From Thermoplasmata archaeon (GTDB taxonomy: Archaea; Thermoplasmatota; Thermoplasmata; Thermoplasmatales; ARK-15), in the NCBI GenBank assembly GCA_038729465.1, contig JAVYRZ010000004.1, positions 19,860-83,859 on the forward strand: a stretch of 64,000 nt of DNA. Direction: 5' to 3'. The notes under the pieces are model-generated. The model did not search any database, had not been told where the DNA came from, and saw only the letters and a program-made list of their open reading frames with translations. Position 1 is the first letter of the stretch; each line of letters starts with the position of its first letter. A program made the translations under genes and the position numbers. Below are positions 19,475 to 63,906 of the stretch, one piece after another.

Positions 19475-20518
19475 ATGTCTGGATTACGAAAAGAGATGGT
19501 TCTTAAAAAAGAATACAACAATAATATTGAAGAAATAAAACCAGAGCTATTCAAGATTCAGATTCCGTTACCAGATAGTCCTCTCAGATTCGTGAATTCT
19601 TATTTGATCAAGGGAGCTAAAAGATCATTGGTAATCGATACTGGCCTAAATCTAAAAGAATGTTATGAAGCAATGATTAAAGCCTTGGATGAGCTTGATG
19701 TAAAACTGGATAATACCGATTTTTTTATAACTCACATGCATTCAGATCATATTGGTTTAATCAGCAAATTGGCAGCAACAGCCACTGTGTATTTGAGTAA
19801 TGTTGAACATAAAATTGTGTTTGAATATGCAAACAGTTCTACATACTGGCTGGAAATCAATAAATACATGGATAAAAACGGTTTTCCTGAAAGTGAGCTA
19901 AATAGTGCATTTAAAATTCTAAATAACATGTTTGTTAAAACGTATCCGATAAGTGATGAATTTAAAAAAATAAACTTTAAAGCACTGAATGATAAAGATA
20001 TCCTAAACTATGGCACCTTTAGGTTAGAGGCAGTGCTTACCCCCGGCCATTCACCAGGGCATATGTGCCTGTATGAGCCAGACAAAAAAATGCTATTTTC
20101 AGGAGATCACCTTCTTTTTGATATAACTCCTAACATTACATGGTGGCCTTCTTTGGACAACTCGCTGAAAAATTATCTTGAAAGCCTGGATAAAATATAT
20201 GATCTGGATATAGAATTGGTTTTACCAGGACATGGAAAATTGGGATTTGATCACAGAAAAAGAATAAATGAAATTAAAAATCATCATAAAATCAGGCTTG
20301 ATGAAATACTGTTAGCTATAAAAGAAGGGAAAAAAACAGCATATGAAATTGCAGGATCTATATCATGGAACTTGAAGGCTGGAGGCTGGAAATCTTTTCC
20401 AGAAACACAGAAATATTTTGCAGTTGGAGAAACAATAGCGCACTTAATTTATCTAGAACGTGAGAAACTTATAAGATCAATGTTAACAGATCAAACAATT
20501 TATTATGAACGGGCTTGA
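19475..20518 (+). CDS. MBL-fold metallo-hydrolase
   Basis: The HxHxDH motif (THMHSDHIG), downstream TPGHSPGH and GDHLLF are typical of the metallo-beta-lactamase fold. Confidence 0.8.
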   Translation: MSGLRKEMVLKKEYNNNIEEIKPELFKIQIPLPDSPLRFVNSYLIKGAKRSLVIDTGLNLKECYEAMIKALDELDVKLDNTDFFITHMHSDHIGLISKLAATATVYLSNVEHKIVFEYANSSTYWLEINKYMDKNGFPESELNSAFKILNNMFVKTYPISDEFKKINFKALNDKDILNYGTFRLEAVLTPGHSPGHMCLYEPDKKMLFSGDHLLFDITPNITWWPSLDNSLKNYLESLDKIYDLDIELVLPGHGKLGFDHRKRINEIKNHHKIRLDEILLAIKEGKKTAYEIAGSISWNLKAGGWKSFPETQKYFAVGETIAHLIYLEREKLIRSMLTDQTIYYERA

Positions 20519-49098: not shown

Positions 49099-50043
49099 TC
49101 ATGGATGATACCAGTCAATCTGTATAAACTCTTTCCCATCCGTAAGTATCAGTTTTTTATTTACACCGTGCGCTAATCTTACGCCTCTTGCAATATCTTC
49201 CATCTTTTCATCCCTGAAAAATAGATGTACGAGATACTCTGCATGTTCTTTTATGCTATTGCCATATGCTCTAAAATCTGCTCCAAACTTAAATCCAGCC
49301 TTTAAAAATAAACCATCATCCATCATTTTTTTGTACACTTTATACTTTAACTCGAATAAAATATCTCTTTCTTTAGCATAATGAAAAAATTCGTTATTGC
49401 TTAGTCCATTCAACACTAAAATTCCTTTTTCTATAAGATATTCTGATTCTAATAAAGATAAAGTAATAAGCAACCCTGACTTTTTACCAAATGCACCTAT
49501 TTCTTTTGACTTTTCTAATATTACATTTTTCTCCAATAATGTCCCAGATAAGCTATCTTTAATGTTATTATTAAAACCACCTTTCAAAACAGGGTTGCTT
49601 AACATAAAATATGTGATCTCTAGATCCTCATCAATTACTGCTATGATATGGTTCCCAAACTCATTAATTTGCTCCACTATTTTTTCAAATTTTACAAATG
49701 ATCCTAAATCATAAGCTATGACCCTCTGGACTGTGCCATTTTTCAAAACTTCTAAAAAGGTATTATTTACCTTAATTTTATACCCTTTGTTTTTAAGATC
49801 ACGATATATATAATACTCAGCTCCAAATCTTGGATCTAATGCAACAGAATACTGAAATAATGATATAAAATCTTTATCTTTTAGCTCTAACTTTTTATTC
49901 TCTAGAAGATAACATGCTTCTATTAATGATAATTTTAGCCTGTTCTTATTAAAAGTTCCTAAAAAGCCATTGTTATATAATTTATTTGACTCAGACTTAT
50001 TAGTGATTATTATAAAGTCAGTTTTTAAAGATGCTGTGGTCAT
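49099..50043 (-). CDS. endA: tRNA-splicing endonuclease, duplicated two-domain type
   Basis: 314 aa. An N-terminal degenerate repeat precedes the C-terminal catalytic repeat with GFKFGADFRAYG and HAEYLVH. Confidence 0.75.
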   Translation of the reverse strand: MTTASLKTDFIIITNKSESNKLYNNGFLGTFNKNRLKLSLIEACYLLENKKLELKDKDFISLFQYSVALDPRFGAEYYIYRDLKNKGYKIKVNNTFLEVLKNGTVQRVIAYDLGSFVKFEKIVEQINEFGNHIIAVIDEDLEITYFMLSNPVLKGGFNNNIKDSLSGTLLEKNVILEKSKEIGAFGKKSGLLITLSLLESEYLIEKGILVLNGLSNNEFFHYAKERDILFELKYKVYKKMMDDGLFLKAGFKFGADFRAYGNSIKEHAEYLVHLFFRDEKMEDIARGVRLAHGVNKKLILTDGKEFIQIDWYHP

Positions 50044-50573
50044 GCTATTAGTTTCCTACTTTCTTTATTGTATATAGATTCACAGATCCATTTTAAAGTA
50101 TTTAAAATATTATCCCCGTTTTTAGCACTAACTATTGCATAAGTAGCTTTAAATTTATTTGCTAGCGCTTTCAAATCTTCTTCCCAGAATAGAGAATGGT
50201 ATTTAGAGTCAGATTTGTTTCCTAAAAATACAATATTTATGTTTCCTACCGTTTTTATAATTTTATCTGCAATCTCTTCTGCTGCATGAAGTGATTCTAT
50301 ACTCGTAACATCAGTTACTATCATTCCAACTTTTGTGTTTTTTAATTTCTGTAAATAGAGATTATCAGAATCCTGCTCTGAAATTAATAATGTCAAAAAT
50401 ATTTTCCCGTCAACAGTTTCACAATCCATCTTTTTTTGAAAGAATTCTCCCTTATCTAGTTTTTTCGGAACATCAGCAAATATATCATATACTATCCTGT
50501 TAATTATCGAAGTTTTACCAGCCCCTTTAGGGCCTAAAAACATTATTTTCCAAGTAATGATATTATCCGCCAT
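50040..50573 (-). CDS. Ras-superfamily-like small GTPase with divergent switch II
   Basis: G1 GPKGAGKTS, G4 GNKSD and G5 SAK are present. The canonical G3 DxxGQ is replaced by LLISEQDS. It overlaps endA by 4 nt. Confidence 0.6.
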   Translation of the reverse strand: MADNIITWKIMFLGPKGAGKTSIINRIVYDIFADVPKKLDKGEFFQKKMDCETVDGKIFLTLLISEQDSDNLYLQKLKNTKVGMIVTDVTSIESLHAAEEIADKIIKTVGNINIVFLGNKSDSKYHSLFWEEDLKALANKFKATYAIVSAKNGDNILNTLKWICESIYNKESRKLIA

Positions 50574-52143: not shown

Positions 52144-52998
52144 ATGTACAGCATAGGGTTGATCTATTTTTTATTGATACTAATCACTTCTGTTTGTGCA
52201 GGGATGTTAGGTGCTATGGCAGGTTTAGGGGGTGGAATATTAATTGTACCATTTTTAACGGCACTTCTAAATGTTAATGTTGATTATGCCATAGGAGCGT
52301 CTATCATTGCGGTGATAGCTACTTCTAGCGGTTCTGCATACGCCTATGTCAAAGAAAAAGTATCAAATATAAGAATAGGCACCTTTTTAGTTCTTTTTAC
52401 TGTCCCTGGGGCTATTATCGGCGCAGTAATCGAAGGATTTACTCAGCCAAAATATTTATTTTTGGTGTTTGGCTTAGTTATGTTTATTTCCATATTTGCA
52501 ATGTATAAAAAGATTAAAGAGAAAGAGAATTTGGATCCAGTAGTAGTTGATGATAAACTTGCAGATAAGTTAAAACTTCATTCTAAATATTATGATGCCA
52601 GGTTAAAAAGAGAGATTAAATATAAAGTTCAACGTGTAAAAGAGGGATCCTTGGTAATGTTTTTTGCCGGTATCGCTTCAGGACTTCTGGGTATAGGATC
52701 TGGAGCATTTAATGTCCTTGGCCTAGATATGATCATGAAATTGCCTATCAAGGTATCCACCACGACCTCTAATTTTATGATAGGGATAACTGCTGCGGCT
52801 AGTGCAGGCATATATTTCTTGAGAGGAGATGTAGATCCATTTATTGCCGCACCTGTGGCCATAGGAGTTCTTATAGGAGCAGTGGGTGGTGCCAGGATTT
52901 TGTTGAAAATAAATAGTAATACTGTAAGAGTGATATTTTTGGCGATTTTGTTTGCGATGGGTGTAGACATGATAATAAAAGGTATAGGAGGTATATGA
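52144..52998 (+). CDS. TauE/SafE-family anion (sulfite/organosulfonate) transporter
   Basis: 284 aa with about 8 TM segments. The duplicated GxGGG-rich helices (GAMAGLGGGILIVPFL and GLLGIGSGAF) are typical of the DUF81/TauE family. Confidence 0.8.
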   Translation: MYSIGLIYFLLILITSVCAGMLGAMAGLGGGILIVPFLTALLNVNVDYAIGASIIAVIATSSGSAYAYVKEKVSNIRIGTFLVLFTVPGAIIGAVIEGFTQPKYLFLVFGLVMFISIFAMYKKIKEKENLDPVVVDDKLADKLKLHSKYYDARLKREIKYKVQRVKEGSLVMFFAGIASGLLGIGSGAFNVLGLDMIMKLPIKVSTTTSNFMIGITAAASAGIYFLRGDVDPFIAAPVAIGVLIGAVGGARILLKINSNTVRVIFLAILFAMGVDMIIKGIGGI

Positions 52999-53506: not shown

Positions 53507-55747
53507 TTATAGCCCTTTATATGGGTTTGGTCCGATCGATTTTATATACTCTACAAAATTATTTATGATCTTGTCTACCTTATTCCAGTCTGATATTTCC
53601 ACCTGCTCTAGTTTTAGTCTTTCTGACTCTAATGCAAGTCTCTGAAACGTTTCTTGCATGTTTTCAATTCTCTTGCTTGCCAGTTCAGATCCTCTAATAA
53701 AGTGGCACTGATAATCTTCTCCAAACTTGCAACCCATTAAAAGTATTCCATCGATTCCCTTGGAAAGTGCGTCAGCTATGAAAATGGTATTTACTGACCC
53801 CAGACATCTAACCGGTATTATTCTCACAAATTCACTGTAACTTATGCGGTTCTTAGACGCCATGTCCAGTGCGGGGTAAGCATCATTCTCGCAGGCAAAT
53901 ACCAATATTCTAGGTTTATCCTCCTCTTCGGGAACTACTATAGATTTTATAGTACTTGAAACCACATCCACTGAATACTGTTTAAAAGAGATTGCCTGTG
54001 CAGGGCAGGCGCCTAGACAGGCGCCGCAAGCCCTACACCGGAGTGGATTATAGAGTGGGTAGGTTTTGTCATCTTCATTCAGAGCTCCAAATGGACACTC
54101 TTCAGTACATCTCCTGCACTGTGTGCATCTTTGCATAGAAATTGTAAGGTGATCTAGATCTCCTACTCTAGTTTGGCCTGTTATCTCACCTCTAGATATT
54201 TCCTCTACTGCCTGAATAGCCTTTAAAGCCGCGCCTTTTGCATCAAGTTCGCAGTTAAGGACTGTCATAGGAGATCGAACAGTACCGGCAGCATATATGC
54301 CGGTTCTTCTACTTTCATATGGAAAGCATATATAATGAGAGTCTGGAAAACCGTCTCTCAATGTTGGCAATTCAGGGCCCTGTCTATACTGTAGATTAAG
54401 TATATGCTTACCGCTCTTAAGAGCTTCTACAGACTCAACTGGCACTGATTGAATATGCGAATAAATTGGAGCACCGGCATCAGGATACTCTTCCTTTACA
54501 GTGTAAAGACCATATAACGAGGATAGCATGCCTGTAGCCAGCGTTATAATGTCTACTTTTACACGTATATCTTTGCCCAAAAGCGTATCTTTTACGTATA
54601 TTGAAAATTCTGAATTGCTGTTTTCACGGCCTATTTCTTCGACAGTACCCTTGGTTAAATAGATTCCTTCATCTTCCTGCACTTTTTTATAAAATTCCTC
54701 ATATATCCCGAGAGTTCTAATATCCTTATAGAAAATGTACACCTTTGAATCTTTTATACTCTTTCTTATTTCCAGTGCCTCTTTTAATGAGCTTAAACAG
54801 CATACAGTAGAGCAGTAAGGTATATTCTCTTTTTCCCTCTGCCCTGCACACAATATAAATGCAAAGTTTTTAGGATCTTTATTACTGGCTGTTTTGATGT
54901 TATTATCTTTCAACATTTTTTCAAGCTCTAGATTTGTTATGATATCTGGTTGCTTTCCATATTGATATTTATCAATCTTGCTGGCATCGTAAGGTTTCCA
55001 TCCGGTAGCTAAAACTATTGCACCGGCTCTGATATTTTCCACTACTCCATTATTCTTAAATGTTACATCAAACATTCCAGGCTGACCAGATATTGAGTCT
55101 ATTTCGCTTGAAGTATATACTTTTATTCTGTGATCATTTTCTAATTTACCTATTTTCTCGCCTATATATTTTGCAGCATCTACAGGCTCCTTATATGGAA
55201 ATTTACCAGGCAGGATCTCTTTGTATTCCCTGATTTTCCCACCTAGCTTTATATCTTTTTCAATCAAGTAAACTTTATAGTTTGCTTTAGCAATTTCCAA
55301 TGCTGCAGTAATGCCCGTGATTCCTCCACCAACCACCAGTATCTCCCGTGAAATATTTTCTATATCAGGCACCGGTAAATCTTTTTTTATGGCTGACACT
55401 ATGCCCATTCTCAGATAATCCTCCGCCATCATCTGTGTATTCTCATTTTTTTCATGAGACCATACCACTCCCTCTCTTAAATTTACACGCTCAGTAATTA
55501 CATCCTTGCCAAAATTAAAAATATCCTGCTTTTCACGCATAGAGCATGCTGCAATAACAACAGTATTAATTCCATTATCTATATCATCTCTGATATGCTT
55601 GGAATCAGAACAGAGAGTATCATATACTTTTACTGGAACTTTATACTCTTTTTCAGCGATATTTTTAAGTGCCTCAATATCCAGGTTCTTGCCTATATCA
55701 CAGCCACTGCAAATATATACACTAACTTTTTTAGCCACTTCACTCAC
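53507..55747 (-). CDS. qmoB: quinone-interacting membrane-bound oxidoreductase subunit B (HdrA-like flavoprotein with MvhD-like domain)
   Basis: 746 aa with an N-terminal YICSGCDIG and the FAD fold VVGGGITGITAALE. Two ferredoxin motifs are present (CTQCRRCTEECP and CRACGACLGACP). The C-terminal MvhD-like region reads ILVFACENDAYPALD. It overlaps qmoA by 8 nt. Confidence 0.85.
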   Translation of the reverse strand: MSEVAKKVSVYICSGCDIGKNLDIEALKNIAEKEYKVPVKVYDTLCSDSKHIRDDIDNGINTVVIAACSMREKQDIFNFGKDVITERVNLREGVVWSHEKNENTQMMAEDYLRMGIVSAIKKDLPVPDIENISREILVVGGGITGITAALEIAKANYKVYLIEKDIKLGGKIREYKEILPGKFPYKEPVDAAKYIGEKIGKLENDHRIKVYTSSEIDSISGQPGMFDVTFKNNGVVENIRAGAIVLATGWKPYDASKIDKYQYGKQPDIITNLELEKMLKDNNIKTASNKDPKNFAFILCAGQREKENIPYCSTVCCLSSLKEALEIRKSIKDSKVYIFYKDIRTLGIYEEFYKKVQEDEGIYLTKGTVEEIGRENSNSEFSIYVKDTLLGKDIRVKVDIITLATGMLSSLYGLYTVKEEYPDAGAPIYSHIQSVPVESVEALKSGKHILNLQYRQGPELPTLRDGFPDSHYICFPYESRRTGIYAAGTVRSPMTVLNCELDAKGAALKAIQAVEEISRGEITGQTRVGDLDHLTISMQRCTQCRRCTEECPFGALNEDDKTYPLYNPLRCRACGACLGACPAQAISFKQYSVDVVSSTIKSIVVPEEEDKPRILVFACENDAYPALDMASKNRISYSEFVRIIPVRCLGSVNTIFIADALSKGIDGILLMGCKFGEDYQCHFIRGSELASKRIENMQETFQRLALESERLKLEQVEISDWNKVDKIINNFVEYIKSIGPNPYKGL

Positions 55748-56978
55748 CCTTTCTTAAGTGTTGCATAGCTCCAAGCACTGCCGCCGTTGCATCCTGGTTA
55801 CTGGATGATACGTCTGCAGGTTTTTTAGCTACACCAGCTACATTAAAAATATCGTCTTCTATGACAAACCCAAAATTATCATATTTTAAGCCATCAATTT
55901 TGTTGGATACTGTACTGGGTTGCATACCAGTTGCTAAAATAACCAAATCAAATTCCTTTTTTATTTTAATCCCGCTAGCTGTATCTTCAACCTGGACAAT
56001 TAGGTTCTTGCTAGGCGTTTCTTCAATCTTGGCAACCTTTCCCTTCGTAAATGTGACGTTCTTGTCAGTTTGCAATTTCTCTAAGAAATGTTCATACAAA
56101 CCATACGCCCTGAGATCAATATAGAATATTGTTATGTTCGCATCAGCATATTGTTCCCTTATGTAGAAAGCATGCTTCATTGATGCTAGACAACATATCT
56201 GCGAACAGTATGGCAAGTAATTTTCATCTCTAGAGCCTGCACATTGAACTATTGCAATATTTTTTGGTTCTTTGTTATCAGATATCCTGATAATCTTTCC
56301 TTTTGTAGGACCATTAGGTGATGCAATTCTTTCAAACATGATATTTGTAATAACATTTTGATATTCCCCAAATCCGAGATGTGCCAGTTTTTTTGCGTCA
56401 TAAGGATCCCATCCAGTAGATACAATAACAGATTTTGCATCAATTTGTATTTTTTCCTCCTTCATGGCTAGATCTATGGCATTGTATTGGCATGCACTTA
56501 CGCATTTAGCACATTCCTTTCCAAGGCAATATTTGGGATCTATAACATATAGATCTGGAAAAGCTAGATCATGAGGAATATATATCGCTTTTGTGGTGTC
56601 CATTCCAAAATTAAAATCATTTTTTCTAGATACGGGACAGACCTCAACACATTTGCCACATGAAGTACATAAATCATTAACGAAACGCGGCAATATAGAT
56701 ATATCTACTGTATAATTATCATTAACGTTTACTACTTTTTTTACATTGGCATTCGTAATGTATTTAAGATTGTTCAGGTTTTTAAGCCTTTTAATAAGTA
56801 TTTCAAAACCACAATAAGGTGGACATAATTTTGGGAAATATTTGTTGAGTTGCACTACTCTTCCACCTAAATATGGATTCTTTTCAAGTAATATCACGTT
56901 ATACCCTGTTTCCGCAGCCTCTACTGCCGAGGTTATGCCGGAAATTCCACCACCGATTACTACAATATCTGTATTCAA
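55740..56978 (-). CDS. qmoA: quinone-interacting membrane-bound oxidoreductase subunit A (HdrA-like flavoprotein)
   Basis: 412 aa with the FAD fold VVIGGGISGITSAVEAAE, then LGGRVVQLNKYFPKLCPPYCG and the Cys motif CTSCGKCVEVCP. It lies directly downstream of aprA. Confidence 0.85.
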   Translation of the reverse strand: MNTDIVVIGGGISGITSAVEAAETGYNVILLEKNPYLGGRVVQLNKYFPKLCPPYCGFEILIKRLKNLNNLKYITNANVKKVVNVNDNYTVDISILPRFVNDLCTSCGKCVEVCPVSRKNDFNFGMDTTKAIYIPHDLAFPDLYVIDPKYCLGKECAKCVSACQYNAIDLAMKEEKIQIDAKSVIVSTGWDPYDAKKLAHLGFGEYQNVITNIMFERIASPNGPTKGKIIRISDNKEPKNIAIVQCAGSRDENYLPYCSQICCLASMKHAFYIREQYADANITIFYIDLRAYGLYEHFLEKLQTDKNVTFTKGKVAKIEETPSKNLIVQVEDTASGIKIKKEFDLVILATGMQPSTVSNKIDGLKYDNFGFVIEDDIFNVAGVAKKPADVSSSNQDATAAVLGAMQHLRKGE

Positions 56979-57008
56979 GCTTTAACATCCCCTAAAATAA
57001 AAAAAAGA

Positions 57009-58952
57009 TTAGAGAGTGTAATCTGCCACCTGTACATACGGCACTTTCTGTAGCTCCCAGTTTCCACTGACAGGGTCTTTTCTTCCAACACTGAAGCATT
57101 TCCAGTTTTTGTCGTCTAGATCTGGATAGTCAGTTCGGTAGTAATATCCAGGCCATCTGGTCTCTTTCCTGAACTTTAGATGCTGTACATGTGCCTCTGC
57201 AACAGTAACTCTGTGCCACATTTCCCAAGTTCTTAAAAGTTCATGCAAATTTCTAGCTGCTAGCTTGTTCATATCCTCTTTTAGAACTTGAATCTTGCTC
57301 AAAGCTATGTTTAAATAGGTTTCATTGATCCTGAACCATGTAGACGTTCCGCCTGCATATTCATCCATGATCTTCTGTAACCTCCACAGTGCCTGTTTTG
57401 GGAATAGGAAATTTGGGTTTATTTCTTCTGCAGTAGTAGCATTCTTGAACTGTTCATACGTAACCATAGGCTGGAATATCTTCTTCTTGAGCTCTGTGAC
57501 GCTATTTTCATCGATACTTACACCATCTCCCTGTTCAACAACATATCTTACAGCTTCCTTACCTGCAATTCTTCCTTCCGTAAAAGAACCGCTTGAGAAT
57601 TTGTGTGGAGAAGCACCTGCGTTATCACCTATGGCAAATAATCCCTTTATCGTGGTCATTCTATTGTACTGCAAGGGAAACAATGTTTTGTATTCATCAG
57701 GCATCAGATCCTGAGGACCGCAGACCCATAATCCTGCACAGCCCGAATGTGAACCCATCAAATAAGGCTCTGCTGCAGCGATTTCAGATGGCGTTTTGTC
57801 AGGCTCAGTATTCGTTGAAGCCCAAAGCATTGCCTGATCTACTGTCATATCCAAGAAATCTTCCCACGCCTCATCAAGCAATTTCTTAGTCTTTTTAGCG
57901 TCTCCTGTAGCTAACTTCTCGATTGCCCACTCTGTTCTCATCCATATTGGGCCTCTTCCATTTACCATCTCTTCAATCATCTGATGGTTTCTAAGTGGTG
58001 TTGGCGTTGGTGTTGCATCAGCGTATGGCTTATATTTTGCCATAGCTTCAACATTTTCAGTGTAATCTTTATCATATGTATTTGTTGCCTTGCTCTTGAA
58101 CAGCAAGAACCATGCACCCACAGGACCATAACCATCCTTAAACCTTGTGGGTATAAATCTGTGCTCCATCTGTGTGGTATGTGCCCCTGCATTTATAGCC
58201 ATTGCATATCCGCTTCCGGTGTTAAACACTGCATACCATATCCTTCCCATACCCTCAGCAGTGCTTTTAGGCCTGAATAACGAAGTGGCACCTCCAGTTG
58301 CTAATATAACTGTTTTAGCTTTAAATATGTAGAATATAGGATCTCTCACACTGAATCCAATAGCACCAGCTACTTTTTGTGGATCGTTTTTGTCCATTAT
58401 CAGATGACTCAAAAATACCCTTTCATATATGTTCTGATCACCAAGCGCTTTTTTTGCAGCCTCTGCAACTATTGGCTTGTATGACTCTCCATTGATCATT
58501 ATCTGCCATCTGCCCTCTCTTATATATTTTCCATTCTCATCTTTCCAGATTGGCAATCCCCATTTTTCAAAAAGATGTACGCTGTCATCAACATTTCTTG
58601 CGTAATCTGCTACTAGATCCTCTCTGGAGACCCCCATCATATCAAGATTAACGTATCTTACGAATTCTTCAAGCGTTATCGGTTTGTTATTTGTAAACTG
58701 TGACCTATCTGACAGACCTAAATAACAGTTTATGGCTGATAACCCATGAGCTACTGCCCCACTTCTTTCAATTGCAGCTTTTTCTACCAGTGTAACTTTT
58801 TTGCCCGCGGCCTTGGCCCAGTATGCTGCCTCATAAGCTGCTCCGCATCCGGACATACCACCGCCTATAATCAAAACATCAGTTTCAACTACTTCAGTTT
58901 TTATATCTTCTGGCTTGTAATTTTCTACTTTTCTATAAATTTCTACTGCCAT
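57009..58952 (-). CDS. aprA: adenylylsulfate (APS) reductase alpha subunit
   Basis: 647-aa flavoprotein of the fumarate-reductase family (LIIGGGMSGCGAAYEA). It sits 12 nt downstream of aprB, and its size and context are diagnostic. Confidence 0.92.
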   Translation of the reverse strand: MAVEIYRKVENYKPEDIKTEVVETDVLIIGGGMSGCGAAYEAAYWAKAAGKKVTLVEKAAIERSGAVAHGLSAINCYLGLSDRSQFTNNKPITLEEFVRYVNLDMMGVSREDLVADYARNVDDSVHLFEKWGLPIWKDENGKYIREGRWQIMINGESYKPIVAEAAKKALGDQNIYERVFLSHLIMDKNDPQKVAGAIGFSVRDPIFYIFKAKTVILATGGATSLFRPKSTAEGMGRIWYAVFNTGSGYAMAINAGAHTTQMEHRFIPTRFKDGYGPVGAWFLLFKSKATNTYDKDYTENVEAMAKYKPYADATPTPTPLRNHQMIEEMVNGRGPIWMRTEWAIEKLATGDAKKTKKLLDEAWEDFLDMTVDQAMLWASTNTEPDKTPSEIAAAEPYLMGSHSGCAGLWVCGPQDLMPDEYKTLFPLQYNRMTTIKGLFAIGDNAGASPHKFSSGSFTEGRIAGKEAVRYVVEQGDGVSIDENSVTELKKKIFQPMVTYEQFKNATTAEEINPNFLFPKQALWRLQKIMDEYAGGTSTWFRINETYLNIALSKIQVLKEDMNKLAARNLHELLRTWEMWHRVTVAEAHVQHLKFRKETRWPGYYYRTDYPDLDDKNWKCFSVGRKDPVSGNWELQKVPYVQVADYTL

Positions 58953-58964
58953 ATTTAATTCCTC

Positions 58965-59426
58965 CTATTTCATCTTCTTCTTTAATGTATATCTTGCTGG
59001 GTCTTTGCAATCTCTTCCACCTGCATAATCGAGCGACTTTAATTTTTCCAGAGTTGGTTCTTCAAAGCCTTCAAAAGGATTTATAGAGTCCCAAGCATTG
59101 GTCCTTATCGGGAATTTAAATCTGAAAATTTTTCCGTTTCTAAACTTTACCAGCCACAAAATAGAGTCAGTTCCTCTCTTAGGTGTCACGGAAGATCCTA
59201 GTGGCACAAAGTCAGAATATCCTCTTACTTCAATGGCATCCTGCGGGCAGGTTTTTACGCAGGAATAGCATTCCCAACACATATCAGGTTCCTGATTATA
59301 TGCTTTCATCTTCGCTTTGTCCAAGATCATTAAATCATTCGGACAGATGTACTGACAAGCAGTCCTTGCTAGCGCCTTACAGCCATCACATTTATCTGGG
59401 TTTACATAAGTTGGCATATTATTCAC
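58965..59426 (-). CDS. aprB: adenylylsulfate (APS) reductase beta subunit
   Basis: MPTYVNPDKCDGCKA...CQYICPNDLM...CWECYSCVKTCPQDAI gives the two [4Fe-4S] motifs. The extended C-terminal tail is typical of AprB. The start is probably at MPTYV (59417). Confidence 0.92.
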   Translation of the reverse strand: MNNMPTYVNPDKCDGCKALARTACQYICPNDLMILDKAKMKAYNQEPDMCWECYSCVKTCPQDAIEVRGYSDFVPLGSSVTPKRGTDSILWLVKFRNGKIFRFKFPIRTNAWDSINPFEGFEEPTLEKLKSLDYAGGRDCKDPARYTLKKKMK

Positions 59427-59498
59427 CTCTTTTACTAAATACCTATATGTTTTCGTTATATTAAAATTTTTTTACGATTTTTGATATATAATAATAGA

Positions 59499-59572
59499 AT
59501 ATGTAAAAATATAAATTAATAAAACATATTTTTGCTATTAAATTAAAATTTTTTAAAATTTATGTAAAAATA
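59499..59572. repeat. two copies of the 12-mer TATGTAAAAATA (59499-59510 and 59561-59572) in the aprB upstream region
   Basis: Read directly from the sequence. On the coding (minus) strand it reads TATTTTTACATA, starting about 73 and 135 nt upstream of the aprB ORF. These may be TATA/BRE-like or regulator sites. Confidence 0.35.
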
Positions 59573-59593
59573 AAAAATAAAAGATATTTGATT

Positions 59594-59938
59594 TTATTCT
59601 TTCATTTCATTCTCTTTTATTACTTCACACATGGGTGTGCCCTGGCACAGAAATTCTTCAACCACTTCTGGTCCCGTGGATCTTTTTCTTACGCATATAT
59701 TGAATAGCTGGTCTTTAGCTTCTTTTGGCAACAATTCTATAGTTTTAGTGGTGGCACTATCAAACTTGGCATTAGGATACATTTTTAATAACCTGTCTTT
59801 CTGGGCCAATGTACACTTTATCAACAGTGATCTCATCCCTGCAAGTACATCCTTGGTTAAATCTGCCAATCCCGCAGCCTTTAACTTTTCAAATCTCTCT
59901 TCATTAATCCATATTGGTATTCCGTTGATTTCATCCAT
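59594..59938 (-). CDS. hypothetical protein between sat and aprB (C-terminal CQGTPMC motif)
   Basis: 114-aa ORF 14 nt downstream of the sat stop, so probably co-transcribed with sat. No family recognised. It has three Cys, two of them in C-x5-C near the C-terminus. Confidence 0.55.
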   Translation of the reverse strand: MDEINGIPIWINEERFEKLKAAGLADLTKDVLAGMRSLLIKCTLAQKDRLLKMYPNAKFDSATTKTIELLPKEAKDQLFNICVRKRSTGPEVVEEFLCQGTPMCEVIKENEMKE

Positions 59939-59952
59939 TTTATAACACCTCT

Positions 59953-61251
59953 TTAAGCCTTTCCAACTTTTATATGATCAAGAGTAAATATCGATTTGCG
60001 GTTGGCCAGATAATTATCGTTTACAAAAGGCGAACCGTATCCATATTTTTCTGAGCATTCCATAACTTTGTCAAATACTTCTGGCCTGAATACAAGTTTA
60101 GTGGGTTTTACTCCATCCATCAAAATACTTCTAATCATAGTGCCGCTGAAAGCTTGGCTCTGCTCTTTATGCGCACAAAGTGCTGAAGAAGTTACTTCTG
60201 AACACACTGGGCAATACCAGTTCTCCATCAAAAATAGTACCTTAATTCCTAATTTATCCTTGTATTTTTTAAGCAAATAATGTGCATCATAAGGGCCATA
60301 ATAATTTCCAACTCCTGCATGGTCTCTGCCGAACATATGGTGAGTACAACCAATATTGGTTCTTAATGCTGAATGGAATAGCGCTTCTCTGGGTCCAGCA
60401 TATCTCATATCCCACAGTGCAAATGTAACTGCATGAGTGTCTTCTCTAAAATATCCGGCAGTCCTCAGTATCTCATGTGTCAACAAAATAGCTTCATCAA
60501 TATAATCTCCTTTTCGCTTCTCTCCTATAATGCAGTTTACAAGCACGCCAGTCTTTATTGTATCTACAGTTAGATCTTCATTTGCTGCAAACCATGCAAG
60601 CTTCATTAGCCATTCATGTCCTGTATGTGGTACATTTCTCGTCTGATGCGCTACTATATGTTCCCAACCTTTCTGCTTAAACAGCTCTCGATGTTGTAAT
60701 GGCGTTTTCCAGAACGATGCATATGGTTCATTAAATTTGGGTTCGTTTACAAGAGTCACTTTACCGCCAATAAAATTATCTTTGTAATCCAAAGTTCTTT
60801 TCACGCCTGGATGTTTTATATCACTTGTTCCATAAACATTTTTAGCAAGATCTTTTTTATCATATTTATATATCTCATCTATATCAAAAATTGCCAGTGG
60901 TTCATTTTGATATGACAATACTACTGATTCTCCATCTTTTATATCGTATTTTTTTAGCTCTTCATCGGATAAGTCAAAGACAATAGGTATGCTCCACACC
61001 GCACCGTTAGTCAAAGTGTTTTCTTTGCTTACGCCATCTAGATCCTCATTGCCCATGAAACCCTGTAAAGGTGTGAAAAACCCATAAGAGAGGTTTATGC
61101 ATTCATGTGCAATCTGTTCTCTGATTGGTATTTTCCTTAATCCTTGAACTTTATTTTCAGCCTTGTCTGATTTTAAGACATTTTCGACTATTCTTTTACC
61201 GCCATGACCGATATCATTCATATATATTCCTCCTACTTTACATAGATTCAA
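59953..61251 (-). CDS. sat: sulfate adenylyltransferase (ATP sulfurylase), homo-oligomeric type without APS-kinase domain
   Basis: It has HQTRNVPHTGHEWLMK (the QxRN/HxxH nucleotidyltransferase motif) and FGRDHAGVG. The start is probably at MNDIGHGGKRIV (61221). Confidence 0.9.
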   Translation of the reverse strand: MNLCKVGGIYMNDIGHGGKRIVENVLKSDKAENKVQGLRKIPIREQIAHECINLSYGFFTPLQGFMGNEDLDGVSKENTLTNGAVWSIPIVFDLSDEELKKYDIKDGESVVLSYQNEPLAIFDIDEIYKYDKKDLAKNVYGTSDIKHPGVKRTLDYKDNFIGGKVTLVNEPKFNEPYASFWKTPLQHRELFKQKGWEHIVAHQTRNVPHTGHEWLMKLAWFAANEDLTVDTIKTGVLVNCIIGEKRKGDYIDEAILLTHEILRTAGYFREDTHAVTFALWDMRYAGPREALFHSALRTNIGCTHHMFGRDHAGVGNYYGPYDAHYLLKKYKDKLGIKVLFLMENWYCPVCSEVTSSALCAHKEQSQAFSGTMIRSILMDGVKPTKLVFRPEVFDKVMECSEKYGYGSPFVNDNYLANRKSIFTLDHIKVGKA

Positions 61252-61305
61252 AATATATATATAAATTTATCGAATTTCGGTAATTTATTTTTATAAAGAG
61301 TTAAA

Positions 61306-61335
61306 TTAGATAAATTATTGATTAAATTTATCTAA
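61306..61335. repeat. 11-bp perfect inverted repeat (TTAGATAAATT / AATTTATCTAA, 8-nt spacer) in the qmoC-sat spacer
   Basis: Read directly from the sequence. It lies 35-64 nt downstream of the qmoC stop and upstream of sat, so it could be a terminator hairpin or an operator. Its AT-rich composition lowers significance. Confidence 0.35.
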
Positions 61336-61369
61336 ATTAGTTTTTTTATCTTGTAAATAGTTTAAAAAA

Positions 61370-62470
61370 TTATATAGCAGGAACTCTGCCGATTGATCTA
61401 GTGTATATCATTGCTATACTCCTATAAATCAAATGTGCAAATTTTGAATATGGTGCGTAGACTATAAGCATGAAAATCAGTGTTAGATGAACAAGGTAAG
61501 TCCAGTAAGCAAAGACACTTCCATCAAGTCTGAGTATTTCCATTGTTACGCCGGTGATCGCGGTAAAAAATAATAGAAATATAAAGAGCCAGTCAAAATA
61601 GGTGTTTTCCTTGGGGACCTTGTTTGAAACATGATTGTATATTACTATTATTATACCGGTTAAAATTACCACTGCACCTATATTCCCTATAATGTTTGCA
61701 GGACCACCTATCAGTGAGTGCTGAACTCCTAGAAAATGTATCTCAAATGCAGCCGTTGCAGTAGCTACCAGTAAAAATATAAAGCCATAAAATGTAAATA
61801 AATGAGCATAATACCTTACATGATTAGTTTCACATTTTTTAAACCAAGAATGAGCAATGATATCTTTAAGTACCAAGATTAGAGAACTGAAAAAGCTCAT
61901 CTTGTTTTTTTGCTCGGCAGTCAAGCTTCTCCAGAATCTCCATAAACTGAACAAAGCAATTAATGCTACGATCACTCCAATTGTTGTACCTATTACATCT
62001 ATGTATATATATGGTATAAAGTTGGAGAAATAAATAGCTCCATCTGCCGGCATCTTCAATCCCAATCCATAGATTAATAGAGCTATAAAGAGAACTGGAA
62101 ATAGTATAAAGAAAGGCAGATATTTTTTTTCACTAATCCCCTTTGCAACGAATCTCGGCCAGGAGTTCTCTTCTATTGCTATCTCTCGGACTGCATTCAA
62201 AACACTTCCAGGTTTAGCATTTCTTGGACAATCTTTAGAGCAATCAGCACAATTATGGCATAGCCAGATATCCGGATCTTTGAGAAGAGTATCTTTAAGC
62301 CCCCACTGTGCCCATATCATCTCTTTCCTTGGAAATGGATTATTATCAGGGCTCAAAGGACATACCACGGAGCATTCTGCGCATTGCATACATTTTTTTA
62401 CATCTTTGCCGCCATGCTTAATTATTTCATCGATAAATTTTGTATCTACATCAATATATTCTGAGTTCAT
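61370..62470 (-). CDS. qmoC: quinone-interacting membrane-bound oxidoreductase subunit C (HdrC-like Fe-S domain fused to a HdrE/NarI-like haem b membrane domain)
   Basis: The N-terminal CMQCAECSVVCP and CHNCADCSKDCP motifs are followed by about 6 TM helices with conserved His. Context with sat/aprBA/qmoAB supports the call. Confidence 0.8.
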   Translation of the reverse strand: MNSEYIDVDTKFIDEIIKHGGKDVKKCMQCAECSVVCPLSPDNNPFPRKEMIWAQWGLKDTLLKDPDIWLCHNCADCSKDCPRNAKPGSVLNAVREIAIEENSWPRFVAKGISEKKYLPFFILFPVLFIALLIYGLGLKMPADGAIYFSNFIPYIYIDVIGTTIGVIVALIALFSLWRFWRSLTAEQKNKMSFFSSLILVLKDIIAHSWFKKCETNHVRYYAHLFTFYGFIFLLVATATAAFEIHFLGVQHSLIGGPANIIGNIGAVVILTGIIIVIYNHVSNKVPKENTYFDWLFIFLLFFTAITGVTMEILRLDGSVFAYWTYLVHLTLIFMLIVYAPYSKFAHLIYRSIAMIYTRSIGRVPAI

Positions 62471-62610
62471 ATACTCACCATATATTTTTCGTCATTTAAT
62501 AGTTTTTTTTCATTTTTGATTTTGGTTATAGTTAATTTTTTATGATAAATGTAAATGCAAATAACTATAAATATCTTATTATGTCTTTTATATAATAAAA
62601 ATTATCGATA

Positions 62611-63369
62611 TTAGGTTTTAACATTCCATAAAAGCTCAAAATGATTTTTATTAGCCATTATTGATTCTTTTGCAAGTATGTTGATTCCAAATAGCTCTCC
62701 GTCCGGTTGTGTAAATGTTAGCAATAAATTTTTTTCATCAATTATCAGCATATATTCATAAAATGAATCTACAATCTTGTATTCGATTCCGGTATTATTC
62801 ATAAAATCTATACAATTTTTAGAAAAATTACCAAGAACTCTAATCTTTATATCTTTATTTTCTGCAATCTTGCCTAGAGTTTTGATGCAATTTAGTGCTG
62901 CTAATGGCCTGTGACCTGCAATAAGGCATTCTCTTTCAGTGGATGCAATCATAGACGTAGCCTTGTTGTAAACATTATTCTTTCCTTTTATTGTCCATAT
63001 TAATGAAATTTCATTTTTTATCTCTTTTTCGTCGATACTTTTCTCTATTTCCCTAGCAATCTTTTTTAAATGTTTTAGCTTAGTTTTAGCCTCTTCACAA
63101 TAATGATCTATATAGTTTTTTAGGGCGATGCTAGGATAAATTACTCTAAATATCTGGGGTTTGGTAGCACTTTTTTCAATAAATCCTTTTTTCTCTAAAT
63201 TTGACATAATTTCGTAGATTTTGGATTGAGGTATATTTCCAGACTTAGAAATGCTCCAAGCTGTACCTTCTTTAATCGTAAGTATAGTCTGATACGCTTT
63301 TGCTTCATACTCTGTCATACCAAACTCTTTCAAATTTTTTAACAATTCCATATGGTTCATTAGTATCAA
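62611..63369 (-). CDS. TrmB-family transcriptional regulator
   Basis: The N-terminal wHTH reads LKEFGMTEYEAKAYQTILTIKEGTAWSISKSGNIPQSKIYEIMSNLEKKGFIE. A TrmB-like C-terminal domain follows. It is divergent from dsrC. Confidence 0.75.
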   Translation of the reverse strand: MILMNHMELLKNLKEFGMTEYEAKAYQTILTIKEGTAWSISKSGNIPQSKIYEIMSNLEKKGFIEKSATKPQIFRVIYPSIALKNYIDHYCEEAKTKLKHLKKIAREIEKSIDEKEIKNEISLIWTIKGKNNVYNKATSMIASTERECLIAGHRPLAALNCIKTLGKIAENKDIKIRVLGNFSKNCIDFMNNTGIEYKIVDSFYEYMLIIDEKNLLLTFTQPDGELFGINILAKESIMANKNHFELLWNVKT

Positions 63370-63533
63370 AATAACTTAAATAGGGATTACATATATATCT
63401 TTTTTTTAAAATAAGAAAATATAATTTATTTATGTATCTAAAAATTTAATTTTTAAACTAAATAAGATATATTTTAAAATAAAATAACAAAAATTGTCAT
63501 AAAAAAACAAAATGTTTTTATTACTGTTTTATA

Positions 63534-63552
63534 TTACTACTATTAGTAGTAA
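63534..63552. promoter_or_regulatory. perfect 9+9 inverted repeat TTACTACTA-t-TAGTAGTAA (core TACT-N3-AGTA), candidate operator upstream of dsrC
   Basis: Read directly from the sequence. It ends 4 nt before the GAGGTGA Shine-Dalgarno (63557-63563) and 15 nt before the dsrC ATG. TATTACT half-sites are also at 63519-63525 and 63532-63538. Confidence 0.45.
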
Positions 63553-63567
63553 AAATGAGGTGAGAGA

Positions 63568-63906
63568 ATGGCTGAAAATTATGTAATTGTGAAAAATCCG
63601 GATGGATCCGAGAAAAAAATAGCCATTGATGAAGATGGTTTTATAAAGGATCCTGCTGATTGGTGTGAAGCTTTTGCTTTAGCAGTAGCTAAAGAAGAAG
63701 GAATCGAAAAGGTGACCGATGAACATTTAAAAGTGATAAACTATCTAAGGAGCTATTTTTTACAGTTTGATAGTTGCCCACCTATAAAGATGCTTTTAAA
63801 GAACACTGGTTTAGATATTAAAACTTTGTATATTTTATTTCCTACCGGCCCAGCAAAAGGTGCCTGCAGGTTAGCTGGTGCTCCTAAACCTACGGGGTGC
63901 GTATAA
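63568..63906 (+). CDS. dsrC: DsrC (TusE/DsrC family) with both redox-active C-terminal cysteines
   Basis: 112 aa. DEDGFIKDPADW, LTDEHLKVINYLRSYF and the C-terminal arm PTGPAKGACRLAGAPKPTGCV are present. The penultimate Cys and a second Cys 11 positions upstream give C-x10-C. A strong SD lies upstream. Confidence 0.9.
   Translation: MAENYVIVKNPDGSEKKIAIDEDGFIKDPADWCEAFALAVAKEEGIEKVTDEHLKVINYLRSYFLQFDSCPPIKMLLKNTGLDIKTLYILFPTGPAKGACRLAGAPKPTGCV

Follow-up and report, generated by a model that had tools for sequence, protein, structure and literature searches.

The window analysed here is a stretch of 64,000 nucleotides (positions 19,860 to 83,859 of contig JAVYRZ010000004.1, assembly GCA_038729465.1) from a Thermoplasmata archaeon, and it is a sulfate-reduction locus of this organism, in whose phylum the Dsr pathway is known from metagenome-assembled genomes (MAGs) only (PMC10591310). 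Between the genes for sulfate adenylyltransferase (sat) and for the beta subunit of adenosine 5'-phosphosulfate (APS) reductase (aprB) lies a small open reading frame (ORF), which is a member of the Pfam family DUF6955. Through genomic comparison of archaea and bacteria, the DUF6955 gene is found to be co-inherited with a large clade of homo-oligomeric-type Sat, in an arrangement suited to joint expression of the two genes. The linkage extends over dissimilatory, assimilatory-like and stand-alone contexts and is independent of the APS consumer, which may be AprBA, a PAPS-reductase-like enzyme or, as in Mycobacterium, nothing encoded nearby.

The sat–DUF6955–aprB locus

The following features of the window are needed for the description of the gene and its immediate surroundings:

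59594..59938, minus strand: DUF6955 gene (the ORF under study), 114 amino acids plus stop codon, ATG start, no interruption
59594..59938, minus strand: type I DUF6955 motifs IWINEER and AKFDSATTKTIELLP within this ORF (the types are described below)
59597..59647, minus strand: C-terminal tail, residues 98-114, CQGTPMCEVIKENEMKE, with C-x5-C; lineage-specific and beyond the Pfam domain
59946..59951, minus strand: Shine-Dalgarno-like GAGGTG within the sat–ORF spacer, ending 7 nt 5' of the ATG
59953..61251, minus strand: sat (sulfate adenylyltransferase), PF14306 and PF01747; NF003166 at E=1.7e-149
59427..59593, minus strand: spacer from the DUF6955 stop to aprB, 167 nt, very AT-rich
58965..59426, minus strand: aprB (APS reductase beta), TIGR02060 at E=2.7e-65
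57009..58952, minus strand: aprA (APS reductase alpha), PF00890 and PF02910; 68% identity to Archaeoglobaceae AprA

An earlier note on this DNA had described an uninterrupted ORF of 114 codons, starting 14 nt after the sat stop, flanked by sat and aprB and ending in a C-x5-C pair. All of this is confirmed, with the addition that the gene lies on the minus strand, which had not been stated. The sat stop codon TAA occupies positions 59955-59953 and the ATG of the ORF positions 59938-59936, so that the gap is exactly 14 nt, AGAGGTGTTATAAA (59939-59952). The flanking genes are identified by the PF01747 and PF14306 domains and the NCBIfam model for sat, and by TIGR02060 for aprB. The listed start codons of both neighbours are probably too far upstream: for sat the listed start is TTG 61251, and homologues align from about residue 11, at ATG 61221; for aprB the listed start is GTG 59426, and the true start is probably ATG 59417 (residue 4), which aligns with residue 1 of the Archaeoglobus fulgidus AprB (1jnr_B). 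The AT-rich spacer downstream of the ORF possibly contains an internal aprBA promoter.

The translation of the ORF ends in ...EEFLCQGTPMCEVIKENEMKE, in which C98-x5-C104 is read; two other cysteines are present (C42 and C82), and the sequence contains no histidine. The closest available comparison is a contig of another MAG named ‘Thermoplasmata archaeon’ (L001), which shares 91% DNA identity with the window across 9.4 kb. Across the ORF 28 codons differ between the two, 24 of them synonymously and 4 non-synonymously, and the excess of synonymous differences argues for purifying selection on the protein. The ORF encodes a translated, soluble protein whose core domain comprises about 100 residues. 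A 104-residue antisense ‘shadow’ ORF (59631-59945, plus strand) covers nearly the whole DUF6955 gene; it has no support, and its annotation is unwarranted.

Assignment to the DUF6955 family

The statement of the earlier note that the ORF has no recognisable family does not hold. In a hidden Markov model (HMM) search the protein matches Pfam PF22271 (DUF6955) with E=8.3e-30 and 103.3 bits against a cut-off of 27; residues 7-97 align with profile positions 3-91 of 91, and the domain ends at residue 97. A 114-residue member of the same 90%-identity cluster is named ‘DUF6955 family protein [Thermoplasmata archaeon]’ at NCBI. A word-index search returned 273 homologues, mostly of 96-102 residues, and PF22271 was found in all 120 of those listed; the relatives range from 94 to 117 residues in length, the window protein having 114. 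An exhaustive profile search against 1.84 billion cluster representatives yielded no more than 63 clusters at 50% identity, none of them with a credible multi-domain fusion, which defines DUF6955 as a compact, stand-alone family.

The identity between the window archaeon and members from Desulfobacterota, Nitrospirota, Firmicutes, Chloroflexota, Actinomycetota and others amounts to 55-65% (alignments A1 and A2). The residues W10, N12, E13, R15, L24, A33, L51, D60, T63, T64, I67, E68, K75 and F79 are invariant in one or both of these alignments, and the invariant positions form the motifs IWINEER and AKFDSATTKSIELLP. Further searches were negative: no other Pfam family is found in the ORF at E up to 1, NCBIfam gives no match, and comparison of the family profile with PDB sequences gives chance matches only (best E=0.018). 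The literature search returned no mention of DUF6955, nor any of AF1668 in the DUF6955 sense or of CT0862/CT0863, and yielded nothing about what the protein does. The window ORF is therefore an ordinary member of a catalogued, uncharacterised family without an assigned function, and the Pfam membership names the protein without explaining it.

In the JGI/IMG annotation, two DUF6955 proteins of Archaeoglobales (P0122 and P0123, in the cluster of P0004) carry the label ‘predicted Zn-dependent protease with MMP-like domain’. A minimal zincin or COG3824 identity was considered and rejected, since HExxH is absent from the family and the window protein has no histidine and no match to the Zincin_1 profile. 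The label looks like a mis-annotation that could spread.

Genomic context of the DUF6955 genes

The neighbourhood of the gene was analysed from both sides. One set of loci, anchored on the ORF, consists of the best 80 of 219 loci from a scan of species-representative genomes, in which neighbours were located by tblastn with the window proteins. The other, anchored on Sat, consists of the 80 closest Sat loci from metagenomes, 79 of which have enough downstream DNA. Greedy ORF calling, which picks antisense ORFs in high-GC loci, was used on low-GC loci only.

In essentially all 80 ORF-anchored loci sat lies on the same strand just 5' of the ORF. The distance from the sat stop to the ORF start is at most 130 nt in about 71 of the 80 loci, with a median of 14 nt, and a 4-nt overlap of sat and the ORF is seen in Actinomycetota, several Mycobacterium species among them. 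The reverse test gives the same picture, the ORF following sat directly in 76 of the 79 metagenome loci. The association with aprBA is much looser. Only 25 of these 76 loci also contain aprB, and aprBA comes next in only about 30 of the 80 ORF-anchored loci; about two thirds of the loci are without aprBA beside the gene. Where aprB does follow (29 loci), the median distance from the ORF stop is 132 nt, ten times the sat–ORF spacer; in the window it is 167 nt.

The sat–ORF pair occurs in several settings. It stands after qmoABC in Desulfatibacillum and Syntrophobacterales, with aprBA elsewhere, and alone among unrelated genes in Mycobacterium. In Calditrichaceae it forms part of a cluster of a PAPS_reduct gene, two arylsulfotransferase genes, sat, DUF6955 and an SSF transporter gene, and in Spirochaetota and Aerophobetes the order is sulfatase–sat–sulfatase–PAPS_reduct–ORF–TauE, these being the only cases with genes between sat and the ORF. 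The genes 3' of the ORF vary (anion porin, TauE, TRAP transporter, RNase R, SSF transporter, nuo genes), and no fixed downstream partner was found across the loci examined. The constant partner is thus Sat and not AprBA, because most loci lack aprBA, the pair stands alone in Mycobacterium, and the sat–ORF spacing is tight at 14 nt against the loose 132 nt between the ORF and aprB.

Organosulfate-type clusters with sat and DUF6955 in lineages of non-sulfate-reducers are located at L083:117-6895, L086:2876-9231, L018:292-5291 and L063:384-3631; in the last of these an adenylate kinase gene lies directly 5' of DUF6955.

The two proteins have also diverged in parallel. Pair by pair, the distances among the ORF proteins correlate with those among the Sat proteins at r=0.90, a value reached in 0 of 999 permutations, and with r=0.89 on 134 non-redundant pairs. 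Their mean identities are 61% (ORF) and 64% (Sat), so that the small protein is about as conserved as the enzyme. The positional conservation supposed in the earlier note is accordingly real, and extends beyond the ‘distant archaea’ named there to many bacteria and archaea.

Archaeoglobus ORF2 and the DUF6955 subtypes

The earlier note had mentioned a small ORF between sat and aprBA in A. fulgidus. A ‘Sat-ORF2-AprAB operon’ of this organism is indeed named in the literature, where AF1667-AF1670 are described as highly expressed at all times (PMC3949148). A. fulgidus is absent among the direct homologues of the window ORF, and P0186, a divergent member used as a further query, led to Thermoproteota and Thermodesulfovibrionales but not to Archaeoglobus. 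The slot was reached by another route, from the A. fulgidus AprB of PDB 1jnr to its relatives in A. neptunius (96%) and Archaeoglobus sp. (95%), and from these to their loci (L094-L097). The gene order there is sat (456 residues), DUF6955 (115 residues), aprB (150 residues) and aprA (643 residues). The 115-residue protein matches DUF6955 by hmmscan with E=2.9e-32, contains no cysteine and is 23% identical to the window protein. The arrangement mentioned in the earlier note is thereby substantiated for A. neptunius and Archaeoglobus sp., and both proteins belong to the same Pfam family at low identity.

Three types can be distinguished within the family. Type I comprises the window protein, most bacterial members and those of some Archaeoglobales MAGs (L002, L003). 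Type II comprises the A. fulgidus group, Thermoproteota and Thermodesulfovibrionales; the Sat paired with it is longer and about 44% identical to the window Sat, and the divergent Thermoproteota-type member P0186 starts 9 nt after a Sat of 461 residues. Archaeoglobus ORF2, a type II protein (LDxxR / IKGTPLE / FGG), shares the family and the sat–aprB slot with the window ORF, which is of type I (WINEER / SATTKSIELLP) and differs by its extra 17-residue, Cys-bearing tail. The residues R15, L24, A57, I67, E68, P71 and V92 are kept across both types. Types I and II are grouped here as ‘Sat-coupled DUF6955’, a grouping proposed in this analysis, to which the window protein belongs. Type III (INVFLDDEK...NPLAGK) is found in Desulfobacterales and others; besides the member in L178, discussed below, its listed coordinates are L092:3365-3697 and L180:8001-8324.

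The idea of a dedicated accessory factor of the Sat/Apr step, put forward in the earlier note, stands as far as the accessory factor is concerned, because of the wide positional conservation and the presence of DUF6955 in the Archaeoglobus slot. The pairing with Apr does not stand, the partner being Sat alone. Two results go further than published work: how widespread and how specific the coupling to Sat is, and the assignment of Archaeoglobus ORF2 to the DUF6955 family.

Predicted structure

An AlphaFold2 model of the window ORF, built with a 72-sequence alignment, is confident and shows a compact alpha/beta domain with a mean predicted local distance difference test score (pLDDT) of 83.7 and a predicted template modelling score of 0.74. 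The elements predicted in the N-terminal half are b1 (5-11), a1 (13-22), b2 (36-42) and a2 (44-53), and those in the C-terminal half b3 (58-60), b4 (66-68), a3 (72-85) and a4 (90-99). Neither the model nor the sequence contains a predicted helix-turn-helix (HTH), ribbon-helix-helix (RHH), zinc-ribbon, P-loop or set of metal ligands. Foldseek finds no fold match in the PDB, with nothing better than E=0.96, and the weak matches are assorted small alpha/beta domains (PII, ACT, acylphosphatase, Cas2).

Several known small proteins were compared with the model. ACT- and PII-like regulators, such as GlnK, PstA and IlvH, the small subunit of acetohydroxyacid synthase, are likewise small alpha/beta domains encoded beside a catalytic gene. 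However, their matches, although among the top ones from Foldseek (7p4y_H, 4rwx_B, 2f1f_A, 9c7n_C), are not significant, with E > 2 and TM-scores of 0.15-0.25 on the query, the order of strands and helices in the window protein differs from the ferredoxin-like b-a-b-b-a-b, and there is no sequence signal. TusA/SirA proteins have a b-a-b-a-b-b fold with a CPxP cysteine. Their element order matches the core of the window model, and both are small proteins of sulfur metabolism, whereas the b1-a1 junction of the window protein reads N-E-E-R, without the conserved cysteine. A TusA/SirA-like identity was rejected, as hhalign gives a probability of 1.2% on a 9-residue chance match and the first 50 Foldseek hits include no TusA. 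The Pfam and NCBIfam scans revealed neither a GTPase motif nor any similarity to CysN/CysD.

Proposed role of the DUF6955 protein

We propose, with a probability of about 0.5, that the DUF6955 protein binds Sat, either as a small subunit without catalytic function or as an allosteric modulator, and tunes sulfate activation, a thermodynamically unfavourable step. The mechanism is inferred from conservation that is enzyme-like over nearly the whole chain, from the tight operon coupling, and from the absence of signatures of catalysis, cofactor use or nucleic-acid binding. Such a protein might affect the stability of Sat, its inhibition by the product APS, or the hand-off of APS. The contact or ligand surface would be a polar patch of invariant residues from the b1-a1 junction (W10, N12, E13, R15) and the b3-b4 hairpin (D60-S-A-T-T-K65, E68, P71, K75), and the C-x5-C tail would be a lineage-specific disordered appendage outside the conserved function.

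On the side of Sat, the C-terminal tail could be a docking element for DUF6955. In this Sat clade residues 398-425 form a tail of about 28 residues with the consensus ECAEKYGFGSPFVTxEYLxKRxPVF, whose conservation of 0.76 is level with the catalytic core (151 Sat sequences, alignment A5), and 0 of 14 solved ATP sulfurylases align past Sat residue 398. The covariation of residues 398-425 with the ORF (r=0.665) is not above background, other 28-residue segments giving 0.35-0.84, and the highest-covarying Sat segment is 355-390. In the analysed DNA the Sat tail spans 59953-60051 (Sat residues about 398-432).

The closest working analogy to DUF6955 is DsrD, a winged-helix protein of about 78 residues. 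Its function was long unknown, and it is encoded behind dsrAB and acts as an allosteric activator of DsrAB (PMC8794893). Like DUF6955, it is a small, stand-alone, widely conserved protein encoded directly behind the gene of a core sulfate-reduction enzyme and lacks a cofactor motif. The likeness is an analogy only and no homology is claimed: the partner is DsrAB, not Sat, and the window model has the order b-a-b-a-b-b-a-a in place of a winged helix.

A number of points weigh against a Sat-binding subunit. Recombinant A. fulgidus Sat was reportedly found by Sperling et al. in 1998 to be active without a partner. The same is true of the solved ATP sulfurylase of M. thermolithotrophicus (PMC10322725), the closest solved homologue being 8a8d. 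Since these enzymes are active alone in vitro, the role of DUF6955 would be modulatory and not essential for catalysis. Three of the 79 close Sat loci have no ORF downstream. Inter-protein covariation singled out no interface in an analysis that was underpowered, with an effective number of sequences of 31; the residue pairs with the highest mutual information (Sat 384/ORF 35 and Sat 380/ORF 72) are unreliable. Type III members are not beside sat: one (L178:6001-6402) lies 590 nt 5' of dsrA-dsrB-dsrD (L178:6993-9665) on the same strand, another is transcribed divergently from an operon whose last gene is NIR_SIR, and others adjoin genes for a 2-hydroxyacid dehydrogenase and an ABC-F ATPase, so that the DUF6955 fold does not always go with Sat. 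Finally, adjacency and co-inheritance would also be expected for a carrier, a sensor or a regulator.

The main alternative, although itself rather unlikely, is a free ligand-binding carrier, buffer or sensor of APS, adenosine monophosphate, pyrophosphate or sulfate that forms no stable complex with Sat. It could, for example, trap the strongly inhibitory product APS and hand it on to the APS consumer of the host, whatever that may be, which would agree with a link to Sat that is independent of the downstream pathway. An anion site could well be formed by R15, K75 and the invariant D-S-A-T-T-K loop, which is rich in hydroxyl groups and charges; the adenylate kinase gene directly 5' of the ORF in L063 points in the same direction, and the weak Foldseek matches are mostly to small alpha/beta domains that bind ligands (PII/GlnK, PstA, ACT and acylphosphatase), but all of these have E > 2. 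No significant fold or sequence match to a nucleotide- or anion-binding family was obtained, members of the Archaeoglobus-type subfamily still follow sat without sharing the D-S-A-T-T-K loop, and conservation at the level of an enzyme better suits a protein-protein interface.

Less likely than a carrier, and improbable on the whole, is an RNA- or DNA-binding, autoregulatory regulator of the expression of sat and other sulfur-pathway genes. The positions of the type III members upstream of dsrABD and opposite the NIR_SIR operon would fit such a function, as would marginal matches to the ‘DNA-binding protein’ 27ae (E=0.052) and to the RNA-binding domain of DbpA (E=0.036). Both matches are at chance level, however, and the model is devoid of HTH, RHH and zinc-ribbon elements. 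An identity of 55-65% between archaea and bacteria would not be expected of a protein that must match lineage-specific promoters, and the gene moves with sat into unrelated regulatory settings.

A coupling factor between Sat and AprBA, as considered in the earlier note, which would act as an adaptor and channel APS, has a slightly lower probability still. The window and 25-30 related loci do have the gene between sat and aprB, and Archaeoglobus has the same arrangement. This reading is contradicted by the roughly two thirds of loci without aprBA within the flanks, by Mycobacterium, Calditrichaceae, Spirochaetota and Aerophobetes, whose loci retain the sat–ORF pair while the examined flanks show no apr gene, by the qmoABC–sat–ORF loci with aprBA elsewhere, and by the packing of the ORF against sat and not against aprB.

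A redox-active or metal-binding protein acting through the C-terminal C-x5-C, also envisaged in the earlier note, is very improbable and was rejected: C98 and C104 are accompanied by C42 and C82 in the window protein and the pair is retained in the nearest relatives (L001, P0001, P0003), but it is confined to these 3 of 200 family sequences, all of one lineage, and the tail that carries it lies outside the Pfam domain in a protein without histidine. P0002, 88% identical to the window protein, lacks the 17-residue tail with its Cys pair, and among the 200 sequences L056 alone has another C..C within its last 30 residues, an unrelated C-x4-C. No cysteine at all is present in 26 of the 200 sequences, and likewise in the Archaeoglobus protein. 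Residues 102-114 of the tail have pLDDT < 50 and are modelled as disordered. With the pair limited to one lineage and the tail predicted to be disordered, a redox or metal role is unsupported. Of the two findings that the earlier note had named as refuting its idea when taken together, a lack of homologues beside sat/aprBA is not observed, homologues being widely sat-adjacent, while a lack of conservation of the Cys pair is. As a functional feature of the DUF6955 family the pair is largely refuted; it is a local peculiarity.

Other genes of the window

The sulfate-reduction genes further away from the ORF are:

61370..62470, minus strand: qmoC, NF038018 at E=9.6e-117; 5' of sat and separate from qmoAB, in the same order in L001
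55740-56978, minus strand: qmoA, an ORF kept after aprBA in related loci
53507-55747, minus strand: qmoB, an ORF kept after aprBA in related loci
63568..63906, divergent from the sat-side genes: dsrC

The order on the minus strand is successively qmoC-sat-DUF6955-aprB-aprA-qmoA-qmoB (window 53507-63906), and it is identical in the Thermoplasmata MAG contig L001. Just past qmoB a TauE/SafE-family membrane protein is encoded (52144-52998, plus strand, E=2.9e-50); TauE genes also lie 3' of DUF6955 in loci of Dehalococcoidales (L007) and Spirochaetota (L086), and the protein is a possible sulfate or sulfite transporter of sat-DUF6955 clusters. Directly 5' of qmoC-sat lies the gene of a TrmB-family transcriptional regulator (62611-63369, minus strand), a candidate regulator of the locus. 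A small GTPase of the Ras/Roc family with 177 residues (50040-50573, minus strand, PF00071 at E=7e-16) adjoins the tRNA-intron endonuclease gene, which together with the genes for diphthamide synthase and HMG-CoA reductase represents the archaeal housekeeping genes of the window.

Significance of the Sat linkage

Models of sulfate respiration, marker-gene surveys and isotope-fractionation models all take the Sat step to involve one protein. DUF6955 is as conserved as Sat and stands behind sat in 96% of the nearest Sat loci, in archaea and in at least eight bacterial lineages. Should it bind or modulate Sat, the view of the rate and reversibility of the first step would change, and DUF6955 would be a new marker for its Sat clade.

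Tentatively, and with less confidence than the modulator role itself, the linkage may be read further, such that the Sat enzymes of this clade are two-component enzymes in which an obligatory small subunit bound to Sat controls the first, energetically uphill step of sulfate reduction and assimilation, for example by relieving APS product inhibition or by gating the release of APS. This clade includes the enzymes of Archaeoglobus, of spore-forming and Syntrophobacterales-type sulfate reducers, of Nitrospirota, of sulfate-reducing Thermoplasmata and of some Mycobacterium. If so, sulfate reduction would be regulated at its very first step by a protein that has received no study since the A. fulgidus sat-aprBA operon was seen to contain ‘ORF2’. 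DUF6955 is a well-defined family at the entry to sulfate reduction, and one that lends itself to experiment.

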